Below, piece by piece: positions 2,459 to 64,000 of a stretch of DNA of 64,000 nucleotides (position 1 is the first letter of the stretch; every line of letters begins with the position of its first letter). Both the position numbers and the translations under genes were made by a program. The stretch is from the sequence record JX128259, one strand, 5' to 3'. The DNA comes from Escherichia phage ECML-134. The notes under the pieces are model-generated. The model searched no databases. It saw only the letters and a program-made list of their open reading frames with translations, and was not told the DNA's origin.

Positions 2459-4278
2459 TACTGGCTCATCCATTCTTTACGAAGGTCAGCATTATCTCCC
2501 ATGAGCATTTCAAAAAGCTCTTTCCAATTCTCAGGAAGTTTAACAACATCATATACTGGATTTTGAATCATCTCACGATATTCAGATTTTTCCAAAGAGC
2601 CAAGTCCCTTAATATAACGGATGCTATGTTTAGGTAGAGCATCTTTAGCACTCTCATATTCGGCGACTGTATAAAACCATTCTTGTTTTTTACCAATCTG
2701 AGCGATGATTACAGGAGTTTTGACAAAGCGAATTCGTCCTTGCTCAAACAATTCTGGCCAATTACTAAAAAATCCAAGCAGAGAAGGATAAATGCTTCCT
2801 AGACCATCATGGTCAGCATCAGTCATAATAGCAATATTATGATAATTCAAGTTTTCAGCTTTTTCACCAAGAACTAATCCAGTGATTGCGCAAATATCAA
2901 ATAGTTCTTTGTTTTTAAGCATATCTGCATAAGACATACCCCAACTGTTGAGAACTTTACCACGCAATGGATAACCACCATGAAGTTCTTTATCGCGAAC
3001 ATCAATAAGATATCCAATAGCAGAATCACCCTCAGTCAAGAAAAGAGTAGTGTCAGCATCTTTACCACAAAGATTCGCTTTGATATGTTTATGAACCTTA
3101 GCTTTAGAAGCCTTTTTAGCTGCTTTAGTTTCTGCTGCTTTTTCTGCCGCCAATTTACGAGCCAAAGCAGCTTCAATAATCGGCATTAGAATAGCTTCAT
3201 TATTTAGAATAGCGCGTGAAATCTTTTTAGCATCAAGCTGAATATGACTACGGATTTCACCAAATGGAGAAGTCAAACGCTCTTTAGTTTGAGAATCAAA
3301 TCGCATGTTTTTCATATCACGAACAAACATAACGATTGTCAAACATTCTTTAACGCGTGCTTTAGTCACATCAATTTTGAACTTACGTTTGATTTGTGGA
3401 ATAAGGTCTTCACAAATATCATCCATAACACAGTCAATGTGATGGCCACCATTCTTAGTGTGAATGTTATTGACGTATGTTAATTGACGAAAACCATCCG
3501 GTGAACGACCAACTGCAATAGAACAATTTTCTTGTTCTTGAACGATAGCATGCTCATCATATTGGCGCGCATATTTCTTAAAATTGCCCTGAACCTTTTT
3601 ACCATTAAAGGTAAATTGAATATCAGGATTAACTACTGCAAGTGTCTGGAGACGATCTAGTGTAATGTCAAGATAAACTTGAGACAGCTCATTAGTTTCA
3701 AATGACATAAAATCAGGAATGAAAGTAACACGAGTTCCTTTCCATTTTCCAGGAATATCTTCCCACGATTTATTTTCCATGCCGTTTGAACAACGAACTA
3801 CAATATTATTTTGACCATCACCAGTTTCACCGACAAACATCACAGAAAAAATGTTTGTCAAACTAGAACCAACGCCATTCATACCGCCGGTGACACGTTC
3901 TTTATCATCACCAAAGTTACCACCTGCTTTTGGAATAGTCCAAGCAGCAACTGGACCAGGAATTTCTTCACCGGTAGGTGTTTTAACCATTGCCTGCGGA
4001 ATACCACGACCGTTATCTTCAACTGTTACTTGATTGTTTTTAATAGTAACATTAATTTTATTTGCGAATTTAAATTTAGTACGAATACCTTCATCTACTG
4101 AGTTATCGATAATTTCATCAATAAGCTTAACAAGACCAGGTACATACTGAACACTTTCCCATTTACCAAACAGAAAGCGCTCATGCATTTCATTAGCTGA
4201 AGAGCCAATGTACATGCCGCTACGCTTTTTGATATGTTCAATATCGCTCAGAATTTTAATTTCATTCTTAATCATCAC
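2458..4278 (-). CDS. 39: DNA topoisomerase II large subunit, gene 39 and gene 60 fused in one frame
   Basis: 606-aa ORF; GyrB-like N-terminus MMIKNEIKILSDIEHIKKRSGMYIGS and GHKL motif VEDNGRGIP; C-terminal 120 aa match recalled T4 gp60. Confidence 0.9.
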   Translation of the reverse strand: MMIKNEIKILSDIEHIKKRSGMYIGSSANEMHERFLFGKWESVQYVPGLVKLIDEIIDNSVDEGIRTKFKFANKINVTIKNNQVTVEDNGRGIPQAMVKTPTGEEIPGPVAAWTIPKAGGNFGDDKERVTGGMNGVGSSLTNIFSVMFVGETGDGQNNIVVRCSNGMENKSWEDIPGKWKGTRVTFIPDFMSFETNELSQVYLDITLDRLQTLAVVNPDIQFTFNGKKVQGNFKKYARQYDEHAIVQEQENCSIAVGRSPDGFRQLTYVNNIHTKNGGHHIDCVMDDICEDLIPQIKRKFKIDVTKARVKECLTIVMFVRDMKNMRFDSQTKERLTSPFGEIRSHIQLDAKKISRAILNNEAILMPIIEAALARKLAAEKAAETKAAKKASKAKVHKHIKANLCGKDADTTLFLTEGDSAIGYLIDVRDKELHGGYPLRGKVLNSWGMSYADMLKNKELFDICAITGLVLGEKAENLNYHNIAIMTDADHDGLGSIYPSLLGFFSNWPELFEQGRIRFVKTPVIIAQIGKKQEWFYTVAEYESAKDALPKHSIRYIKGLGSLEKSEYREMIQNPVYDVVKLPENWKELFEMLMGDNADLRKEWMSQ

Positions 4279-6707: not shown

Positions 6708-7208
6708 TTATCTCATTTCAATAAAATCTACAAGTTCAGCATGGGATTTACGGAACATTACCTGGCGTCCGCCAATGATAACTTCATCTTCAGGAACTTC
6801 ATATACGGCGAGATAAAATCCTTTAGAAGATAATTCTTCCCGCTCTTCTCGTGTGAACCATCTCATCATATCATATTCACTAGCGAAAGCAAAATGATAA
6901 AGAGCTATAAACCATCCTGGAATATGATATTCTACTCCAACATAATCTTTCTTGAACTTAGTATTAATTACTATATTAGCGTTTTTAACTAATAGTTTAT
7001 CTTCGTGTGGTAAAGGAATTCTTTTATTATCATCGCTATGATGCATAAAATTAGGTCTGTCATAACCTACGTGTAATAGCCACTCTTCGCTCCATGAATC
7101 TATTATACTCCTGTACGGCGTTATTTGAACACAAAGATTTCGACGTATTGTTATAGCATCTTCATAATCAAGAATACTAAACGATGATTCAACACGATAA
7201 ATTTTCAT
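6708..7208 (-). CDS. hypothetical protein
   Basis: ORF track gives 6708-7247; start moved to internal Met (MKIYRVESS) because promoter 7236-7265 lies inside the longer ORF and GAGGA precedes the ATG at 7208. Confidence 0.55.
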   Translation of the reverse strand: MKIYRVESSFSILDYEDAITIRRNLCVQITPYRSIIDSWSEEWLLHVGYDRPNFMHHSDDNKRIPLPHEDKLLVKNANIVINTKFKKDYVGVEYHIPGWFIALYHFAFASEYDMMRWFTREEREELSSKGFYLAVYEVPEDEVIIGGRQVMFRKSHAELVDFIEMR

Positions 7209-7235
7209 TTTATTATCCTCAGTAGCTATGGTGTT

Positions 7236-7265
7236 ATAATACCACAACTAACCGAGGAAGTAAAC
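7236..7265 (-). promoter_or_regulatory. early sigma70-type promoter
   Basis: gtaaac at 7260-7265; -10 TATTAT as reverse complement of 7236-7241. Confidence 0.5.
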
Positions 7266-7271
7266 AACTTT

Positions 7272-7955
7272 TTATCGTTTTGTTGGAAGAGACAGAGGAT
7301 CGCATTCTTCCTCTGATGGAGCATCTTCAAGACCCATAGCATATCGCAAAGCATACTTCATCATCAGGATGTCTTTCGCACAGTCATGAATAGAATCATG
7401 TGCAACGAATCCATCTAAAGTTCCCTTTGGAAGAGGACACGTGGTCATATCACGAACAAGCAGAAGTGCTTCAATTCTGGTACGAATATCACGCTGATTC
7501 CAGAATTTACAAGGTTCTAACTTAAACGTATCAAGCTCATTCTCGGAAACGCCGTTAAGACGTTGAATATCGCGAATGAGATCAACTAAAATTGGAAAAT
7601 CAAACGACATTCCACGGCACCAGCCTTGAGATTTCCAAGGATCGATATTATGCGCATTGATGTAATCATTAAATTTTGCAATACCATCGATAGTGCTTAC
7701 ATCTTCATCTGATGGTGCAATATTTTTTCGAGCTTCAGGAGATTGATTTTTCCACCATTCGATAGTGCTTTTAGTAAAAAGACGATGTCCTTTTTGGCTT
7801 TTTAAATCAAATTTGATTTTAATGCCACGTGAAACTAATTCATCAAATGTTTCAACGACTTCTGGATTAGGGTCAAAAGCAATTACAGCCAAATCAATAA
7901 CAGCTGCTTTTTCACCACTTCCCATTGTTTCAAAATCTATAATAAAATCAAACAT
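7272..7955 (-). CDS. dexA: exonuclease A
   Basis: 227-aa ORF, T4 DexA length; DnaQ-like N-terminus FDFIIDFETMG. Confidence 0.85.
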   Translation of the reverse strand: MFDFIIDFETMGSGEKAAVIDLAVIAFDPNPEVVETFDELVSRGIKIKFDLKSQKGHRLFTKSTIEWWKNQSPEARKNIAPSDEDVSTIDGIAKFNDYINAHNIDPWKSQGWCRGMSFDFPILVDLIRDIQRLNGVSENELDTFKLEPCKFWNQRDIRTRIEALLLVRDMTTCPLPKGTLDGFVAHDSIHDCAKDILMMKYALRYAMGLEDAPSEEECDPLSLPTKR

Positions 7956-17107: not shown

Positions 17108-17111
17108 TTTT

Positions 17112-17273
17112 ACTCTTCTTTTTCTTTAGATTCCTCTTTTTTCTTTTTAGGAATCTGTTCAGGACCTTTATTTACTACAGCGCCTGATGTTGTTCCAGTA
17201 GAGATATTTTCAGGATTACCACCTGAATCTCCAGCGACCATATCTTCTTTAATAAATTCTTTATATGTTTTCA
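17112..17273 (-). CDS. small protein with internal-protein-like N-terminus
   Basis: 54-aa ORF translated by hand: MKTYKEFIKEDMVAGDSGGNPENISTGTTSGAVVNKGPEQIPKKKKEESKEKEE; stop 1 nt before gene 61 ATG. Confidence 0.5.
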
Positions 17274-17275
17274 TA

Positions 17276-21788: not shown

Positions 21789-22637
21789 TTAATCAACTGC
21801 TATTGGATGAATAGCATTAAACTTATGAAATGCTTCTGATTTTTCTTTACGCGAAACACACATGCGAAGAACCTTTAATGGTTCATCTTCTTCACCCAAC
21901 GATTTTCGTTTTTCAATATTCGATGTTTTCCAACGAGCTTGCTCTGGAAACTCTCTATTGATTTGCTCAAGCGCTCTATTATGTTTAGAATTACTGCGAA
22001 TTGAACTACATCCGCCAGGAGCTTGTGCTTTTCCAGATACAACCAGATATTTGAACAAGGCCAAATGCGGATAACCTTGATTAATTAAATTGAGAAATGC
22101 ATACATATCTTCGCATAAATCAATTTTTCCATACCCAATTTGTTCTGTCGTAAGTTTTCCGAGGTCATACCATGTATTCGTGAATCCATATGAATTTTCA
22201 CGATAATTACCCCAAGATGAAGTAATTTTAAAAATAGGTAGACGAGCATGGCCATGATAATACCCGCAATCCATGGCATCCTCAACATATTGAATCAATT
22301 CATAGAACTGTTCACGGGTCAATTGATTGACTTTATCCACACAACGGCGATCATCTCTTTTTCGCATTGAACTCATACGAATAGTAGTATCATCGTCAAT
22401 CATCCAGATTCGTTGACCTGCATACATATCAGTAATTGCTTTACGAGTACCGGCAATTCCGTTTACATCATCAGGAATAGTTATAATTTTAGCTCTAGAC
22501 CCATAGGCATCATAATAAGCTTTTTCTTCATGTTCACGCACTACAATATGCGGTTCATAATCAGTCGGAAACATATCAAGGGCAGAAACTGCCCCGACAC
22601 GCTGATAACTTGGAATTACGAATTGAATCATTTCCAC
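21789..22637 (-). CDS. glycosyltransferase, GT-A-like, at the beta-gt position
   Basis: 282-aa ORF; N-terminal VIPSYQR and IWMIDDD (DxD-like) motifs; does not resemble recalled 351-aa T4 beta-gt. Confidence 0.6.
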   Translation of the reverse strand: MEMIQFVIPSYQRVGAVSALDMFPTDYEPHIVVREHEEKAYYDAYGSRAKIITIPDDVNGIAGTRKAITDMYAGQRIWMIDDDTTIRMSSMRKRDDRRCVDKVNQLTREQFYELIQYVEDAMDCGYYHGHARLPIFKITSSWGNYRENSYGFTNTWYDLGKLTTEQIGYGKIDLCEDMYAFLNLINQGYPHLALFKYLVVSGKAQAPGGCSSIRSNSKHNRALEQINREFPEQARWKTSNIEKRKSLGEEDEPLKVLRMCVSRKEKSEAFHKFNAIHPIAVD

Positions 22638-34872: not shown

Positions 34873-34890
34873 AAAGGGCCGAAGCCCTTT
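34873..34890 (-). terminator. stem-loop at alpha-gt 3' end, UUCG tetraloop on transcript
   Basis: aaagggc-cgaa-gcccttt; overlaps alpha-gt stop codon. Confidence 0.5.
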
Positions 34891-36091
34891 ATTTTGTAAT
34901 AATGTCAAACTGTTCTTTAAAGCAGAAGCTTGAATCTTGATGCTGATACAAAAATTCATATGCTTTTTCTCGCTCACGGTCATAAAGAGCTCGGTCAGAT
35001 GACAGTTCTTTAATACGCTCGAATGTTGATTCCATGTCATTTTCATCAAACCAAATGATACCGCTATCATGCGAGGTCAAAGGAGTATTATCAACACGGA
35101 ATTTTAAATTTTCGCCAGTAGATTTCCAAAATACCGGAATTGTTCCACAAGCACCAAGCTCGAGATGAGTATATTCTAAAGAACGTTGTAGATATTTTTT
35201 GTCCAACTTACTCAACTGATAACCAAATCCGGATTTACTCATGCGTTCAAGCATTTCGCTATTTACATAACGGTCAAGAATTTGCGTTGGCAAATTAGGA
35301 GCAATTTTAATTTGGTCTACTTGATGAAGACGATAATACTCATATGGAATTCCTTTTTCTTTAATAGGAATGAACGCTGGAGAACGTTCCAGACCTTCCA
35401 TAATAGTACTTAGTCCTGCAGGTTTAAGATGTTTTTCGTGAAAATCAAACATCTGATAAAAGCCTTTCCATGTAGTAGTACGACCAATCCAACGGTTGAT
35501 ATTCATGTTAATTTCAGAAACATCTTTCCAGTAGGTTGATCTAACCTTCGCAATATCCATAGGAGGCTGAAAGTTATATACTGTCGGCGCTTCTTCAATA
35601 TCATCAAACAAAGAAACTGTTTCAGGATACCATTCTTTCATCAGAACTTTATTAAAATCGCCATTATCAGAATGACTAAAAATAACATCAGCTCGACGAA
35701 CAGTTTCTTCTAATCCCAAATTTCGACGCAAAGAAAGAGAAGAATGGTCATGTTGATAAACTACAACACGAACCGAAGGTTTAATGTTATCAATAATTTT
35801 TTTATAGTTATTAATAGTGTCTTCTTCAACTGAAGTAGCAGGAACTGAATTGATAATTAGAATATCACAATCATTTACCAGCTTAAGTGTTTTATCGTAT
35901 TCTTTTGCCAATAAAACCGGAATTGAAAATGATTTATAATCATGCGCACAGTTACGAGTAAATGATTTATCTTTAGCATAAACCAAAGTTACTTCATGAC
36001 CATTTTTAATAAACCAATCACGCTGCTCAAGAGAAAATTTAGTTACACCGCAACCTTCAAGACCTCGAGCCATAAAAATACATACTTTCAT
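34889..36091 (-). CDS. a-gt: DNA alpha-glucosyltransferase
   Basis: 400-aa ORF MKVCIFMARGLEGCGVTKFSLEQRDWFIKNGHEV..., closely matching recalled T4 alpha-gt. Confidence 0.85.
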   Translation of the reverse strand: MKVCIFMARGLEGCGVTKFSLEQRDWFIKNGHEVTLVYAKDKSFTRNCAHDYKSFSIPVLLAKEYDKTLKLVNDCDILIINSVPATSVEEDTINNYKKIIDNIKPSVRVVVYQHDHSSLSLRRNLGLEETVRRADVIFSHSDNGDFNKVLMKEWYPETVSLFDDIEEAPTVYNFQPPMDIAKVRSTYWKDVSEINMNINRWIGRTTTWKGFYQMFDFHEKHLKPAGLSTIMEGLERSPAFIPIKEKGIPYEYYRLHQVDQIKIAPNLPTQILDRYVNSEMLERMSKSGFGYQLSKLDKKYLQRSLEYTHLELGACGTIPVFWKSTGENLKFRVDNTPLTSHDSGIIWFDENDMESTFERIKELSSDRALYDREREKAYEFLYQHQDSSFCFKEQFDIITK

Positions 36092-58945: not shown

Positions 58946-59407
58946 TCATTGAGTTTTAATTACTGCTTTAGAAGCCTTTCCTGGTAAACGACGACTGTTA
59001 ATAATTGCCATCCTACATTGGAGTGACGGGTCTTTGAACTTCTCATTAGGTTTACAAACTGTAAATCCAAGCCAAAGATTTCCATCTGTGATTTCTAAAC
59101 GTCCAGGACGATATTCAATCCCATCAATAAAATCCTCATCGATATCAGGACGCGGAGGCATACTCAGGAATTCATTAACTTCTAAAACATGGTCTTTTAT
59201 TTTATGGAATAATTCAAAAACATATGTCTCATCAATCTCCCGTTGAATTGCGCGATCAAGAAGATGCTGAGAATATTTTAGATGAAACGATGAGACTCCT
59301 GCTGCTTTTGATGCCTCACGAATCTCATTGTTAATTTGACGAAACTCCGACTCAAAGTGACGACGAAGCTTATTTCGACGGATAAAAACTTCTGTATTGA
59401 TAGTCAT
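58946..59407 (-). CDS. regB: RegB site-specific RNA endonuclease
   Basis: 153-aa ORF, T4 RegB length; sequence recalled as similar. Confidence 0.75.
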   Translation of the reverse strand: MTINTEVFIRRNKLRRHFESEFRQINNEIREASKAAGVSSFHLKYSQHLLDRAIQREIDETYVFELFHKIKDHVLEVNEFLSMPPRPDIDEDFIDGIEYRPGRLEITDGNLWLGFTVCKPNEKFKDPSLQCRMAIINSRRLPGKASKAVIKTQ

Positions 59408-59434
59408 GTTATTCTCCTCTTAACTGATAGAAAA

Positions 59435-59464
59435 ATTATACCACAGTTAAGAGGAAAAGTAAAC
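59435..59464 (-). promoter_or_regulatory. early sigma70-type promoter
   Basis: gtaaac at 59459-59464; -10 TATAAT; 18 bp spacer. Confidence 0.55.
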
Positions 59465-59466
59465 AG

Positions 59467-59787
59467 TTATTCTTTAAATCTAATCAATTTATTCATAGAC
59501 TTTGAAACTTCTGCACGAACCTCATGTAGATTTTTGAGCTGTTCAAGACGCTGCGTATAGTAAGCAATTTCATCTTCTTCGAGACAGTCCTGTGAATCTT
59601 CTTTAAGATAACGTGCATAGTCCTGGAAAGCGTTACGGACTACTTCCTGGAAGTCATCAAGACTTTGAATTTTCTTAGGAGCAACAGATACACGACGAGG
59701 GGCAGTATAATACTCATAACCAAACCCTGCGCTTAATTGAGCCATTAGTATTTTTCCTCTGGTTGGAACACTGCACGACAAGCCCAC
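59467..59787 (-). CDS. hypothetical protein
   Basis: 106-aa ORF. Confidence 0.55.
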
Positions 59788-60047
59788 ATACTGGCTTCTT
59801 TGAGTTTCGTTTTAGCAATAGTTAACTGATCGAGGCTTTCAGCATAATTCTTCGCGAATTCACAGTCTTCACAATTATCTAGTGCTTCCCAGAATTCATC
59901 GTATAAAGCGTCAAAGATAAGTCCTAAACGAATTTCAGCGTCTTTGATAGCATTCACTTTACCGATTTTCTCTTCAGTATGCGGCTTATAACCTTTAATG
60001 TCTTCAATCATATTTGACTTCCTCACCAGTACATAAATCATATTCAA
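59745..60047 (-). CDS. hypothetical protein
   Basis: 100-aa ORF. Confidence 0.55.
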
Positions 60048-60225
60048 CTAAACGAATAGGTTCATGAATGCCATATCCCTGAACAGAAATTTCTGTCGTA
60101 GGATAAATTCCATCAATATCGCCCATATTCCACGCTTCATTAAATTGCTGTTCGCCTGAATTACTAAACCACTCGGCGAAAGCATTTAGCACATCTTCAG
60201 AACCTTCAATAATTATCTTTGCCAT
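60004..60225 (-). CDS. small acidic protein
   Basis: 73-aa ORF. Confidence 0.5.
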   Translation of the reverse strand: MAKIIIEGSEDVLNAFAEWFSNSGEQQFNEAWNMGDIDGIYPTTEISVQGYGIHEPIRLVEYDLCTGEEVKYD

Positions 60226-60587
60226 TACAAACTCTCGGTAAAGGTACGAGCGATAACGTCGCGCTGCTGTTCCGGAGTCAGAGAGTTAAAGCGAACTGCA
60301 TAACCGGATACACGGATGGTCAGCTGCGGATATTTTTCCGGATGCTTAACTGCATCTTCCAGAGTTTCACGACGCAGAACGTTAACGTTCAGGTGTTGAC
60401 CACCTTCAATTTTAACTGTAGGCTGTGGCTCAATTTCAATTTCACGGGCATGCAAACCATAGAAAATTTCTGGGTCTACAAAAGAGTCCTCTTTAAAGGT
60501 TTTAGAGACAATAATTCGTGCTTGAATACCATCTTCAAAATAAATAGTACCTTTATGTGTGCCTTCAAGAATTTGATATGCTTTCAT
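60225..60587 (-). CDS. autonomous glycyl radical cofactor, GrcA/YfiD-like
   Basis: 120-aa ORF ending [32 protein letters not shown]; glycyl radical motif RVSGY; 3' half visibly more GC-rich than surroundings. Confidence 0.8.
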
Positions 60588-60594
60588 ATAAACC

Positions 60595-60921
60595 TCAATT
60601 AGAAAATAAATTTATCCAAGATTGTTCTTTAATTAAAAACGGCTCAGAATCATATGCCATTAAACTTTGCGTAATTAATCCTTTAAAAGGTCCATCAATA
60701 AATTCCATGGTAAAATATGGAATTTTATTCATTAGCCGTGCATTAGGAGCAGTGCACAAAACTCTGCATCCTTTGAATACGCCTTTTTGTAATTTGTATT
60801 GCTTAGGATAAAATTCGCTCAAAATGTTATTGTTTGCTAAAATTTCAAAATGATTCACCAATTTATTTTTAATAGTTTTTGGCGAAAAATAAAGATATTC
60901 GAAAAGCTGAGTGTCTGTCAT
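60595..60921 (-). CDS. hypothetical protein
   Basis: ORF track gives 60595-60972; start set to Met-Met pair overlapping the upstream stop (TGATG). Confidence 0.5.
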
Positions 60922-61460
60922 CATTGCATTCCGATTACGAAAAACTGCGGACGAGTAATACCACCAATGCAACAGTTAATATTACAGCAGTGGTGTACAG
61001 TGTCAATATGGACACTATAAATCTTATCCATATCAGGAGATTTGACAGGCTCATCAATTATATACAAAATTCGCGAAAGCGATAAACCTCTGAACTTGCT
61101 TCCTTTATTACCAATAAAACTGCGTACAGAATCAGTAAATAAACGAAAACGTATATCATCATTAGAATAACGCGAAAATTCCTTTTTAATGTTATTTGCA
61201 GAAATTTTAGCGTAAGCTGAAGTATTAGAAAGAACAATAACTGTTCCACCGTCATACAACCAATTAGCGGCAAAATTAGTTACTGCAGTTGATTTACCGG
61301 ATTGACGTCCACCATCTAGTCGAAGTGTGCAATACTGCTTAAGTAAGTCTTCAAATGGCGGGATATATTCGTTTTTACAAATTTCTTCTACTCTAGCGTC
61401 AGAATGGTGTGTAAAAGCATTCATCAGGGATAGATAAGGACCAGTTAAAAATGTTCTCAT
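60921..61460 (-). CDS. P-loop ATPase at the position where T4 carries denV
   Basis: ORF track gives 60921-61508; start moved to Met 17 because the first 16 codons overlap the 34 nt intergenic repeat; Walker A GGRQSGKST, Walker B ILYIIDEP. Confidence 0.55.
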   Translation of the reverse strand: MRTFLTGPYLSLMNAFTHHSDARVEEICKNEYIPPFEDLLKQYCTLRLDGGRQSGKSTAVTNFAANWLYDGGTVIVLSNTSAYAKISANNIKKEFSRYSNDDIRFRLFTDSVRSFIGNKGSKFRGLSLSRILYIIDEPVKSPDMDKIYSVHIDTVHHCCNINCCIGGITRPQFFVIGMQ

Positions 61461-61494
61461 TTTATTCTCTCTAAATTTGGGCCATTCCATGGCG

Positions 61495-61528
61495 CATGAA
61501 TTGTCCATTTCTGTATTTACCCATTACC
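61495..61528. repeat. 34 nt intergenic repeat, copy A
   Basis: catgaattgtccatttctgtatttacccattacc; one mismatch to copy at 62143-62176. Confidence 0.7.
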
Positions 61529-61613
61529 GCACTTGGGCTCGACCTTATTACAGGTTGGCGGGAATCCCTCACAGAATCATGAGGTCCAGCTTGTTCCCAT
61601 ATTTCTTATTTGC

Positions 61614-62087
61614 TTATTTGAATGATTTAACGTACTGAATAGAGCCTTTACTATTCACGAAAGCGATTTTACCATTTTTATTATACATGGTAGCAGTACG
61701 CTGATAGCCATAAGTTTGCTTACCAGATTGATAACCAACTAATGCAAAATTATCTTCACCCATTTTATTCTGTTTAGCACGAATACGTTCATGACCATGT
61801 GCCATAAGAACTTTAGCATCACCAGTTGCAATGGATCTACGAGTTTTTTCATCTTCAACTGTATTAACAAAATCGTCAAATGAATCAAATTTAGCATGTG
61901 ATTTATTATACAGTTTTCCATCTACTGCATAATTATATCCTTGTACATCCATCTCAACTTCTGTACCATCATCTAATACAGCAGTAATTTTCTGTCCTTT
62001 TTTAAATTTCAAAAGATCAGTAAAAGATTCAGCAATAATTTGAGAATTAATAGCTGCTTCAGTAATAAATTCTTGATATGTTTTCAT
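61614..62087 (-). CDS. internal head protein, IPII-like
   Basis: 157-aa ORF beginning MKTYQEFITEA, the capsid targeting sequence of T4 internal proteins; body differs in length from recalled T4 IPII. Confidence 0.6.
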   Translation of the reverse strand: MKTYQEFITEAAINSQIIAESFTDLLKFKKGQKITAVLDDGTEVEMDVQGYNYAVDGKLYNKSHAKFDSFDDFVNTVEDEKTRRSIATGDAKVLMAHGHERIRAKQNKMGEDNFALVGYQSGKQTYGYQRTATMYNKNGKIAFVNSKGSIQYVKSFK

Positions 62088-62128
62088 GTATATCCTTTAA
62101 ATGTAAATAGTGTTATTATTTAAGTTTT

Positions 62129-62176
62129 GGACAATTCACACACATGAATTGTCCATTTCTATATTTACCCATTACC
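62129..62176. repeat. 34 nt intergenic repeat copy B with 10 bp perfect inverted repeat
   Basis: ggacaattca-cacaca-tgaattgtcc (62129-62154) overlapping repeat 62143-62176. Confidence 0.7.
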
Positions 62177-62195
62177 AGGTTCGAACTCGGCTTTA

Positions 62196-62777
62196 TTAAG
62201 AATTACCGCGGGCTGCATTAGCAACAGCGTAAGCGTACTGAACATTAGCGTCTTTAAACGTACCTTTAGAGGTATCTAGTTCTGCCTTAAAGCCGCCTTT
62301 AGTCATAACCTCGGCGAATTCTTTACGGAAAGCCATTGCATCAAGGCTTCTCCATGACGATTTGTGCTTGGCGAATTCAAGACCAGCGTAGTTGACAGCC
62401 TTAGCTAATTTATTATCAATAACCCATTTACCAGCTTTAGGCACAAACACCGGGCCTTTCTGTTTAGAGAATAGTTTTAAATTCCAGCGACGAAGGTCAC
62501 CGTCAGCTTTAACAAAAGCTGCGTCCAAGTTACTAGCAACAACATCTTGAATATGGCCAAATTTAAGCCCATCAACTTCAATATTTAAATCTGTACGCCA
62601 GCGAAGTCCTTCCCAAGCGAAAGCTTTAAAGTCAGAAGCTTTTGTAGCTAAGTATCGTTCAATAGGGGCTGTTTTAGGGTCAAAGCCGTTTCCCGATCGG
62701 TAGGTCCACTCATCTTTATTAATGCCTTTGGCCTTTTCCACAGAAGCTTCAGCGATAAATTCTTTATACGTTTTCAT
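62196..62777 (-). CDS. ipIII: internal head protein IPIII
   Basis: 193-aa ORF beginning MKTYKEFIAEA; T4 IPIII length. Confidence 0.7.
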   Translation of the reverse strand: MKTYKEFIAEASVEKAKGINKDEWTYRSGNGFDPKTAPIERYLATKASDFKAFAWEGLRWRTDLNIEVDGLKFGHIQDVVASNLDAAFVKADGDLRRWNLKLFSKQKGPVFVPKAGKWVIDNKLAKAVNYAGLEFAKHKSSWRSLDAMAFRKEFAEVMTKGGFKAELDTSKGTFKDANVQYAYAVANAARGNS

Positions 62778-62814
62778 GTGTTTCCTTTAAATATTTTAAT
62801 TAGTAACTGTGAAT

Positions 62815-62844
62815 ATACTATCACAGTTTTAGGAGAAAGTAAAC
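62815..62844 (-). promoter_or_regulatory. early sigma70-type promoter
   Basis: gtaaac at 62839-62844; -10 TAGTAT. Confidence 0.5.
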
Positions 62845-62848
62845 AACT

Positions 62849-63379
<531 letters not shown>

Positions 63380-63835
63380 TTAAAAGAGGCTGTTCATTAT
63401 TCGGTAAAGTGAAGGACCCATCACATATTGCCACTGAGTACGAGGAATAAGAGCAAAAGCGTCCATCTCTGGAATCATAACGCCATCTTTATTTTCAAAA
63501 TAAGACTTGCAGCGGCAATTTCTAAACATCTCATGCTCTACTGGAATCGTATAATAAAATAACTGTAGGTCTTTATTACTAGAATATTTAAATACACCTA
63601 GGTCTTCTAGAAGGTCTGGATTATAATTGCTAAAACCAGTCTCTTCTAAACATTCTCTTCGTGCTGCATCTAATGCGCTTAAATCAGAATTTTCTACACG
63701 ACCTTTTGGAATATCCCAACGATGTGCCATCGTTCCAGGCTTACGAGAACCAGTAACCCGACCCATAAATAAATCTTTATCTTCTGTCATAAAGATAATA
63801 CCAGCTGATAGTGTTTTCATTTTAATTTCCTGCAT
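63380..63835 (-). CDS. nudE: Nudix hydrolase
   Basis: 151-aa ORF; Nudix box GRVENSDLSALDAARRECLEETG; true start may be Met 6 at 63820 (ATGA overlap with upstream stop). Confidence 0.75.
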   Translation of the reverse strand: MQEIKMKTLSAGIIFMTEDKDLFMGRVTGSRKPGTMAHRWDIPKGRVENSDLSALDAARRECLEETGFSNYNPDLLEDLGVFKYSSNKDLQLFYYTIPVEHEMFRNCRCKSYFENKDGVMIPEMDAFALIPRTQWQYVMGPSLYRIMNSLF

Positions 63836-64000
63836 TCAGTGATAAAGTTATTTAAATTTTGAGCATATTTCTTTTCATCAAAAATCTTTTGCTGTCTGCG
63901 TAAACGCCATGGCATTTCAATGAACATGCGCCATATTCCTGATAATACTGCTGCTGTAAAAATATTAACAAGTATAGTTAAAAGAACCCAATCTCCTATT
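63820..64000 (-). CDS. partial ORF, C-terminal end of a hydrophobic protein continuing past the window
   Basis: open frame read by hand from 64000 down to stop at 63817-63819. Confidence 0.45.

Follow-up and report, generated by a model that had tools for sequence, protein, structure and literature searches.

Which internal protein does Escherichia phage ECML-134 encode beside IPIII, and against which host defence might it act? Internal proteins are first responders that enter the cell with the phage DNA, and for four of them a single type IV restriction enzyme is known as the target. The targets are GmrSD-CT596 for IPI, GmrSD-ECOR21 (BrxU) for IPII and the two-gene GmrSD-ECOR17 for IPIII, with strict specificity in each case (PMC12373910, PMC9391042); Bas37_0260, encoded at the ipI locus, inhibits McrBC (10.1101/2025.11.20.689424). 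We analyzed 64,000 nucleotides of ECML-134 (record JX128259; hereafter the window), in which two adjacent ORFs had been described as an internal protein pair. The original prediction took the first of them for a lengthened, IPII-like gene and saw in it a candidate for a different host-defence target. The two ORFs are:

61614..62087, minus strand: ip4 coding sequence, 157 aa, product starting MKTYQEFITEA; assigned to Ip4, DUF7412 and phrog_3155
62196..62777, minus strand: ipIII coding sequence, 193 aa, product starting MKTYKEFIAEA; targeting sequence at 62748-62777

As had been predicted, both ORFs begin with the capsid targeting sequence, and their products share the start MKTY[QK]EFI[TA]EA. 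They are found directly downstream of the lysozyme gene e (62849..63343) and nudE, in the order e, ipIII, ip4 and vs.8, with ip4 immediately after ipIII. An AAGGA ribosome-binding site stands 5 nt before each ATG, at 62093-62097 for ip4 and at 62783-62787 for ipIII. In a six-frame translation of the whole 64-kb window, the leader pattern M[KN][TSQ][YF].[ED][FI] occurred only three times, always at the start of an ORF, and its presence here is therefore not due to chance. The window is collinear with the genome of Escherichia phage vB_EcoM_SCS4 (Tequatrovirus), with 98.5% identity.

Assignment of the two ORFs to Ip4 and IPIII

The 157-aa product matched the Pfam family DUF7412 (PF24183) with an E-value of 5.7e-96 and 319.4 bits (cut-off 27), residues 1-157 aligning with profile positions 1-158, and PHROG 3155 ("internal virion protein") with an E-value of 6e-102. 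The protein is 100% identical to that of T2, RB33, RB18 and many others, and is annotated as "Ip4" or "ipIV" in Shfl2, RB14, ime09, PST, Kha5h and K3. By these matches it is identified as Ip4, a catalogued T-even internal protein whose gene was already known. Set beside the "ipIV" products (internal head protein 4) of T2, K3, RB14, RB32, RB33, RB51, Shfl2, ime09 and PST, it shows 98-100% identity over the full 157 aa and occupies the same locus next to e/ipIII, with no difference of substance; at the DNA level, the ECML-134 copy differs from the other alleles by 7-20 synonymous changes.

A tblastn search of 50,697 phage records returned matches to Ip4 in 469, to IPIII in 259 and to IPII in 198. 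The Ip4 family was found in phages of Escherichia, Shigella, Salmonella, Klebsiella, Serratia, Erwinia, Proteus and Yersinia. In sequenced phages, no other member of the class is as widespread as Ip4, which makes the hunt for its target worthwhile; this has already been recognised, and the hunt has begun. In the literature searched, Ip4 is not named together with IpIII or internal head protein in any paper, and DUF7412 is not mentioned; virion proteomics mentioning Ip4 were not found in the searchable literature.

The second ORF had been taken, by implication, for IPIII, the neighbour of IPII, and this was borne out. The 193-aa protein shares 178 of its 193 residues (92%) with T4 IPIII (E-value 1e-135) and matches phrog_5341 at 1.6e-117, and it can be assigned to the IPIII orthologues on this basis.

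Ip4 and IPII share a leader and differ in their bodies

The 157-aa ORF is longer than T4 IPII (100 aa), as the original prediction had noted, and several features could suggest a lengthened or diverged IPII orthologue. T4 IPII is likewise a small basic protein encoded in the slot downstream of ipIII, with the same promoter-proximal, ribosome-binding and leader DNA, and a full-length BLASTP comparison of the two proteins gave an E-value of 7e-07. This score, however, comes from the leader. When the mature parts were compared, BLASTP E-values were 0.46-0.61, and hhalign gave a probability of 0.4% without the leader; with the leader, only columns 1-18 matched. The resemblance behind the "IPII-like" label is thus limited to the first ~11-18 residues, and the rest of the protein is an unrelated body behind a common leader. 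Unlike ip4, T4 ipII is also linked to denV. In Klebsiella phage vB_Kpl_K65_evo5, ip4 and ipII are present side by side, so they are separate cassettes and not alleles. T2, which carries an identical Ip4 and lacks IPIII and IPII, behaves as a phage without IPII function, being rescued from GmrSD-ECOR21 by IpII. We consider the idea of an IPII orthologue refuted, with a negligible chance of being right. The alignment proposed with T4 IPI, IPII and IPIII hence did not turn up an ordinary IPII orthologue, and what it left standing is an ordinary orthologue of Ip4.

Similarity to the other internal proteins does not extend further. In BLASTP comparisons, no similarity of Ip4 to IPI or IPIII was detected beyond the leader, and without the leader the E-values were worse than against IPII. 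T4 IPIII (Ip3) shares only the leader with Ip4, its body being unrelated. T4 IPI* (Ip1), for which an NMR structure has been solved, is packaged by way of its leader, as is predicted for Ip4. Bas37_0260 shares only the leader with IPI-III and is encoded at a different locus from Ip4; it shows that the class reaches past GmrSD to other type IV enzymes.

Predicted processing and conservation of Ip4

Two sites in the N-terminal part of Ip4 are of interest for processing:

62058..62087, minus strand: ip4 codons 1-10, capsid targeting sequence MKTYQEFITE; predicted gp21 cut after Glu10
62028..62036, minus strand: ip4 codons 18-20 (I-A-E), candidate second gp21 site; mature start at Ser21

The determinants of the leader were defined experimentally for IPIII, positions 4 and 7 serving targeting and positions 8 and 10 processing (Mullaney & Black, in PMC9026906). 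All four are present in Ip4 as Y4, F7, I8 and E10, where IPIII reads MKTYKEFIAE, and E10 is invariant in the Ip4 family. E20 is also invariant and preceded by I/L/M-x (14 family members); of three distant homologues, two retain this site as LNES. Residues 10-18 of Ip4 are predicted by a model to be disordered. In T4 IPI, a single [LI]xE motif is present, at residues 17-19, as compared with 18-20 for the conserved site of Ip4. Given the two [LI]xE sites and the fact that internal protein propeptides span 10-19 residues (PMC9026906), mature Ip4 likely comprises residues 21-157 (15.5 kDa, predicted pI 9.3) or 11-157 (16.5 kDa, predicted pI 9.1), and would be small and basic. We are confident that Ip4 is a packaged internal protein.

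An exhaustive HMM search of 1.84 billion representatives returned only eight hits, which were family members or fragments. Three of the eight are distant Ip4 homologues with 34-37% identity; two of these start with MNFxxFLNES, and the third has FKEIYNS after a longer N-terminus. For the distant homologues P0015 and P0016, no close match was found among isolated phages. The residues invariant across the distant homologues are G, V, A, L, two N-K pairs, Q, Y and T.

We considered whether Ip4, once injected, could act as an enzyme and modify host components covalently, as Alt does. H64, H99, R101, E111 and D112 are invariant in the close family, which would suit such an activity. These residues are not kept in the homologues at 34-37% identity, so that Ip4 is more plausibly a binding protein than an enzyme. 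Comparisons of Ip4 with PDB profiles, PADLOC and NCBIfam gave nothing meaningful, and no enzyme family and no fold was matched that would hint at an activity. An enzymatic Ip4 is therefore highly improbable.

Organization of the ip cassettes

Comparison of the DNA with that of T4 by blastn, together with a search for repeats and a terminator-like scan, gave the following features:

61603..62055, minus strand: ip4-specific DNA without T4 counterpart, comprising the gene body from codon ~11 and 11 nt of 3' flank
62056..62102, minus strand: repeat D2 copy 1, with the ribosome-binding site, ATG and targeting codons of ip4; right boundary of T4 homology
62746..62792, minus strand: repeat D2 copy 2, the same module before ipIII
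61495..61550, minus strand: repeat D1 copy 1, 3'-flank module downstream of ip4, starting with a TAATAA relic
62143..62198, minus strand: repeat D1 copy 2, 3'-flank module starting at the TAATAA stop of ipIII
62128..62155, unstranded: hairpin with an 11-bp stem between ipIII and ip4

Homology to T4 by blastn covers only 59001-61602 and 62056-64000, with 92-97% identity. The right boundary coincides with the end of the leader codons and the left one with the base after the T4 denV stop codon, so 744 bp of ipII body plus denV in T4 occupy the place of 453 bp of ip4 body in ECML-134. By tblastn, neither denV nor the bodies of IPII and IPI were found in the 64-kb window.

D2 is a 47-nt direct repeat with 87% identity between its copies, and D1 a 56-nt direct repeat with 82% identity. 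The 5' and 3' modules around the ip genes look like a built-in architecture for cassette exchange, and the D1 and D2 repeats framing each gene are plausible substrates for such exchange by homologous recombination. The sequence upstream of D1 (61551-61613) was also considered as a relic of an ipIII-like 3' coding region; this was rejected, since 528 of 1,000 shuffles scored just as well and the match was not significant.

D1 copy 1 falls inside the N-terminus of vs.8 as annotated in T4 and is conserved in T4 and Shfl2. The N-terminal extension of T4 vs.8 thus runs into the 3' repeat, and this extension is perhaps not truly coding. In ECML-134, vs.8 (60921-61602, minus strand) is split relative to T4: the ATG start of T4 is a GTG, and a 7-nt deletion together with a TAT-to-TAG change ends a 33-aa ORF (61471..61572), the main ORF restarting at 61508 in another frame. 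The vs.8 gene of Shfl2 carries the same 7-nt deletion.

As regards transcription signals, neither ip4 nor ipIII has an exact copy of the late-promoter consensus TATAAATA immediately before it. The nearest exact copies are at 63357 and 63370, before the co-oriented gene e, and a site with one mismatch is at 62856. The stem of the hairpin at 62128-62155 is perfect (TGGACAATTCA...TGAATTGTCCA), and its T-run is on the plus strand only, antisense to the genes.

Plasticity and evolution of the e/ip locus

The gene order at the locus was compared among phages:

T4: e-ipIII-ipII-denV
ECML-134 window, Shfl2 and SA21RB: e-ipIII-ip4
T2 and Bas43: e-ip4
Bas37: e-denV, followed by vs.8, without ip4
T6: e adjoins regB
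Klebsiella K65: e-ip4-ipII
Yersinia fHe-Yen9-01: e-ipII-denV

The e/ip locus is highly plastic. The ipII-denV tandem is present in T4 and in Yersinia phage fHe-Yen9-01. The ECML-134 window lacks this module, as do T2-type phages. In classical genetics, T2 is described as more UV-sensitive than T4 through its lack of the v gene.

The two cassettes have different patterns of divergence. Between ECML-134 and the Klebsiella phage, identity is 70.7% for Ip4, 64.6% for e and 57.5% for nudE. The IPII of T4 has 92% identity with that of this Klebsiella phage and about 95% with that of Mosigvirus. Overall, comparison of Tequatrovirus, Mosigvirus and Klebsiella phages gave 92-97% identity for IPII and only ~63% for the flanking lysozyme, and this sequence pattern points to a recent spread of the ipII cassette by horizontal transfer. 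Since Ip4 diverges with the genome and IPII seems to have spread recently, Ip4 appears to have occupied the locus for longer, which would make T4 the unusual genome. The 157-aa gene had been presented as the unusual one; the identity of its product with the T2 protein and its greater frequency than ipII in sequenced phages suggest the reverse, with T4, not ECML-134, as the atypical phage at the ip4/ipII locus.

Among five Tequatrovirus alleles of ip4, we counted 7-20 synonymous and 0-1 nonsynonymous differences (dN/dS 0-0.035). The ipIII gene is looser, with a dN/dS of 0.06-0.20; both genes are under purifying selection, which is very strong for ip4. One interpretation is that Ip4 is the ancestral internal protein of the e locus, passed on vertically in several genera of enterobacterial T4-like phages and frozen (dN/dS ~0) by the binding of a conserved target, T4 having swapped in a horizontally acquired ipII-denV cassette. 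The target would then be a defence other than GmrSD, or a DNA-surveillance factor, that is widely conserved in Enterobacterales; otherwise the constraint would be a dual one, from a role inside the capsid and from a host target. We regard this interpretation, taken as a whole, as rather unlikely.

Published phenotypes and possible role of Ip4

Published phenotypes restrict the range of targets that Ip4 could have. T2 is restricted by GmrSD-ECOR17 (PMC12373910), GmrSD-CT596 and GmrSD-ECOR21, and both T2 and Bas43 are restricted by the glycosylase Brig1. When ip4-10 were assayed against additional active GmrSD variants, no reproducible inhibition was obtained (PMC12373910). By such phenotypes, eight GmrSD types and Brig1 are excluded as targets of Ip4. 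A screen of ~200 accessory genes in wild E. coli included the RB51 allele of Ip4, which differs by one residue; this allele is not listed with the genes for which a phenotype was reported. The HIDEN-SEQ transposon data are uninformative on ip4, as Bas37 and T4 both lack the gene.

On balance, we lean towards the view that Ip4 is packaged and injected and that it inhibits a type IV restriction system without acting as an enzyme. By analogy with its class, Ip4 would be made late and would enter the scaffolding core of the prohead by means of its leader. The prohead protease gp21 would trim it after Glu10 and probably after Glu20, the basic product having a mass of 15.5-16.5 kDa. It would be packed alongside the DNA in a copy number of tens to hundreds and would be injected together with the genome. 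In the cell, Ip4 would bind stoichiometrically, without catalysis, and inhibit a host defence that acts immediately. Its most likely target would be a modification-dependent (type IV) restriction system attacking glucosyl-hmC DNA, one that would differ from GmrSD-CT596 (target of IPI), GmrSD-ECOR21 (IPII), GmrSD-ECOR17 (IPIII) and McrBC (Bas37_0260). The earlier proposal of an injected protein directed at a different host-defence target agrees with the present working hypothesis of the field for such genes (PMC12373910).

Ip4 could act instead mainly as a structural or charge-neutralising part of the head, binding DNA or scaffold and aiding assembly or packaging, as T4 IPIII partly does, with no specific host target. 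Yet T4, T6 and Bas37 are fully viable without ip4, and T4 mutants without all three internal proteins grow on standard hosts (PMC9026906). The gene is also subject to a presence/absence polymorphism of cassettes that is typical of accessory genes, and all leader-bearing proteins of known function are anti-restriction factors. A mainly structural Ip4 thus seems unlikely to us.

The strong constraint on ip4 bears on the inhibitor hypothesis itself. A near-zero dN/dS and divergence in step with the neighbouring genes are usually atypical of a fast arms-race gene, and speak against an anti-restriction function. Such constraint would fit a conserved target, and Ip4 could be injected and act on something besides type IV restriction, either another first-response defence or a conserved host function. 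The exclusion of the GmrSD types and Brig1 and the conservation of the family in phages of eight enterobacterial genera, from Escherichia to Yersinia, are in line with this. It has no positive support, however, and the precedent of the class leads to type IV enzymes; moreover, seven of the 15 enterobacterial GmrSD groups had no anti-phage activity in the published assay (PMC12373910) and could still include the target. A target outside type IV restriction is, in our view, quite improbable, and a type IV system is the target that we favour for Ip4.

For the window, the practical gain is a correct annotation as Ip4 and IPIII, with no denV, and a prediction of host range. As ipIII is present and ipII absent, ECML-134 is predicted to resist ECOR17-type GmrSD and to be unprotected against ECOR21-type GmrSD.

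DNA glucosylation genes and other leader-bearing proteins

The type of DNA modification in ECML-134 was considered from its glycosyltransferase genes. A canonical alpha-gt gene is located at 34889-36091 on the minus strand (PF11440, 1.8e-237). The slot of T4 beta-gt holds a gene for a 282-aa glycosyltransferase of the TAGT family (21789-22637, minus strand). RB33 and PST carry a collinear gene of ~280 aa in the beta-gt slot, annotated as beta-glucosyl-HMC-alpha-glucosyltransferase. With alpha-gt and this transferase, DNA of the T2/T6 type, containing alpha-glucosyl and gentiobiosyl hmC, is therefore expected. A connection of Ip4 with the type of glucosyltransferase was considered: the beta-alpha-gt gene is present in the Ip4 carriers ECML-134 (window), RB33 and PST and also in T6 and Bas37, which lack ip4, in a sample that is small and confounded by lineage.

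A third leader-like ORF of the window lies at 17110-17274 on the minus strand and encodes 54 aa, starting with MKTYKEFIKED and having a Lys/Glu-rich tail. The ORF is orthologous to T4 gene 61.1 and immediately precedes the primase gene 61; its setting is an early operon and not a late ip locus. Its product has no match in Pfam or NCBIfam; in T6 it is labelled "putative head morphogenesis protein".

Beyond the region corresponding to the window, SCS4 (ON506924.1, 64000-75000) encodes four more leader-bearing proteins, at 2863-3426, 3552-4025, 6839-7072 and 7158-7448 of that segment, all on the minus strand. They comprise an IPI orthologue (96 aa) and a 77-aa protein at the ipI locus, as well as proteins of 187 aa and 157 aa near e.8 and the tRNA genes, the latter being unrelated to Ip4. 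Given these additional proteins, the lineage probably injects at least six internal proteins.
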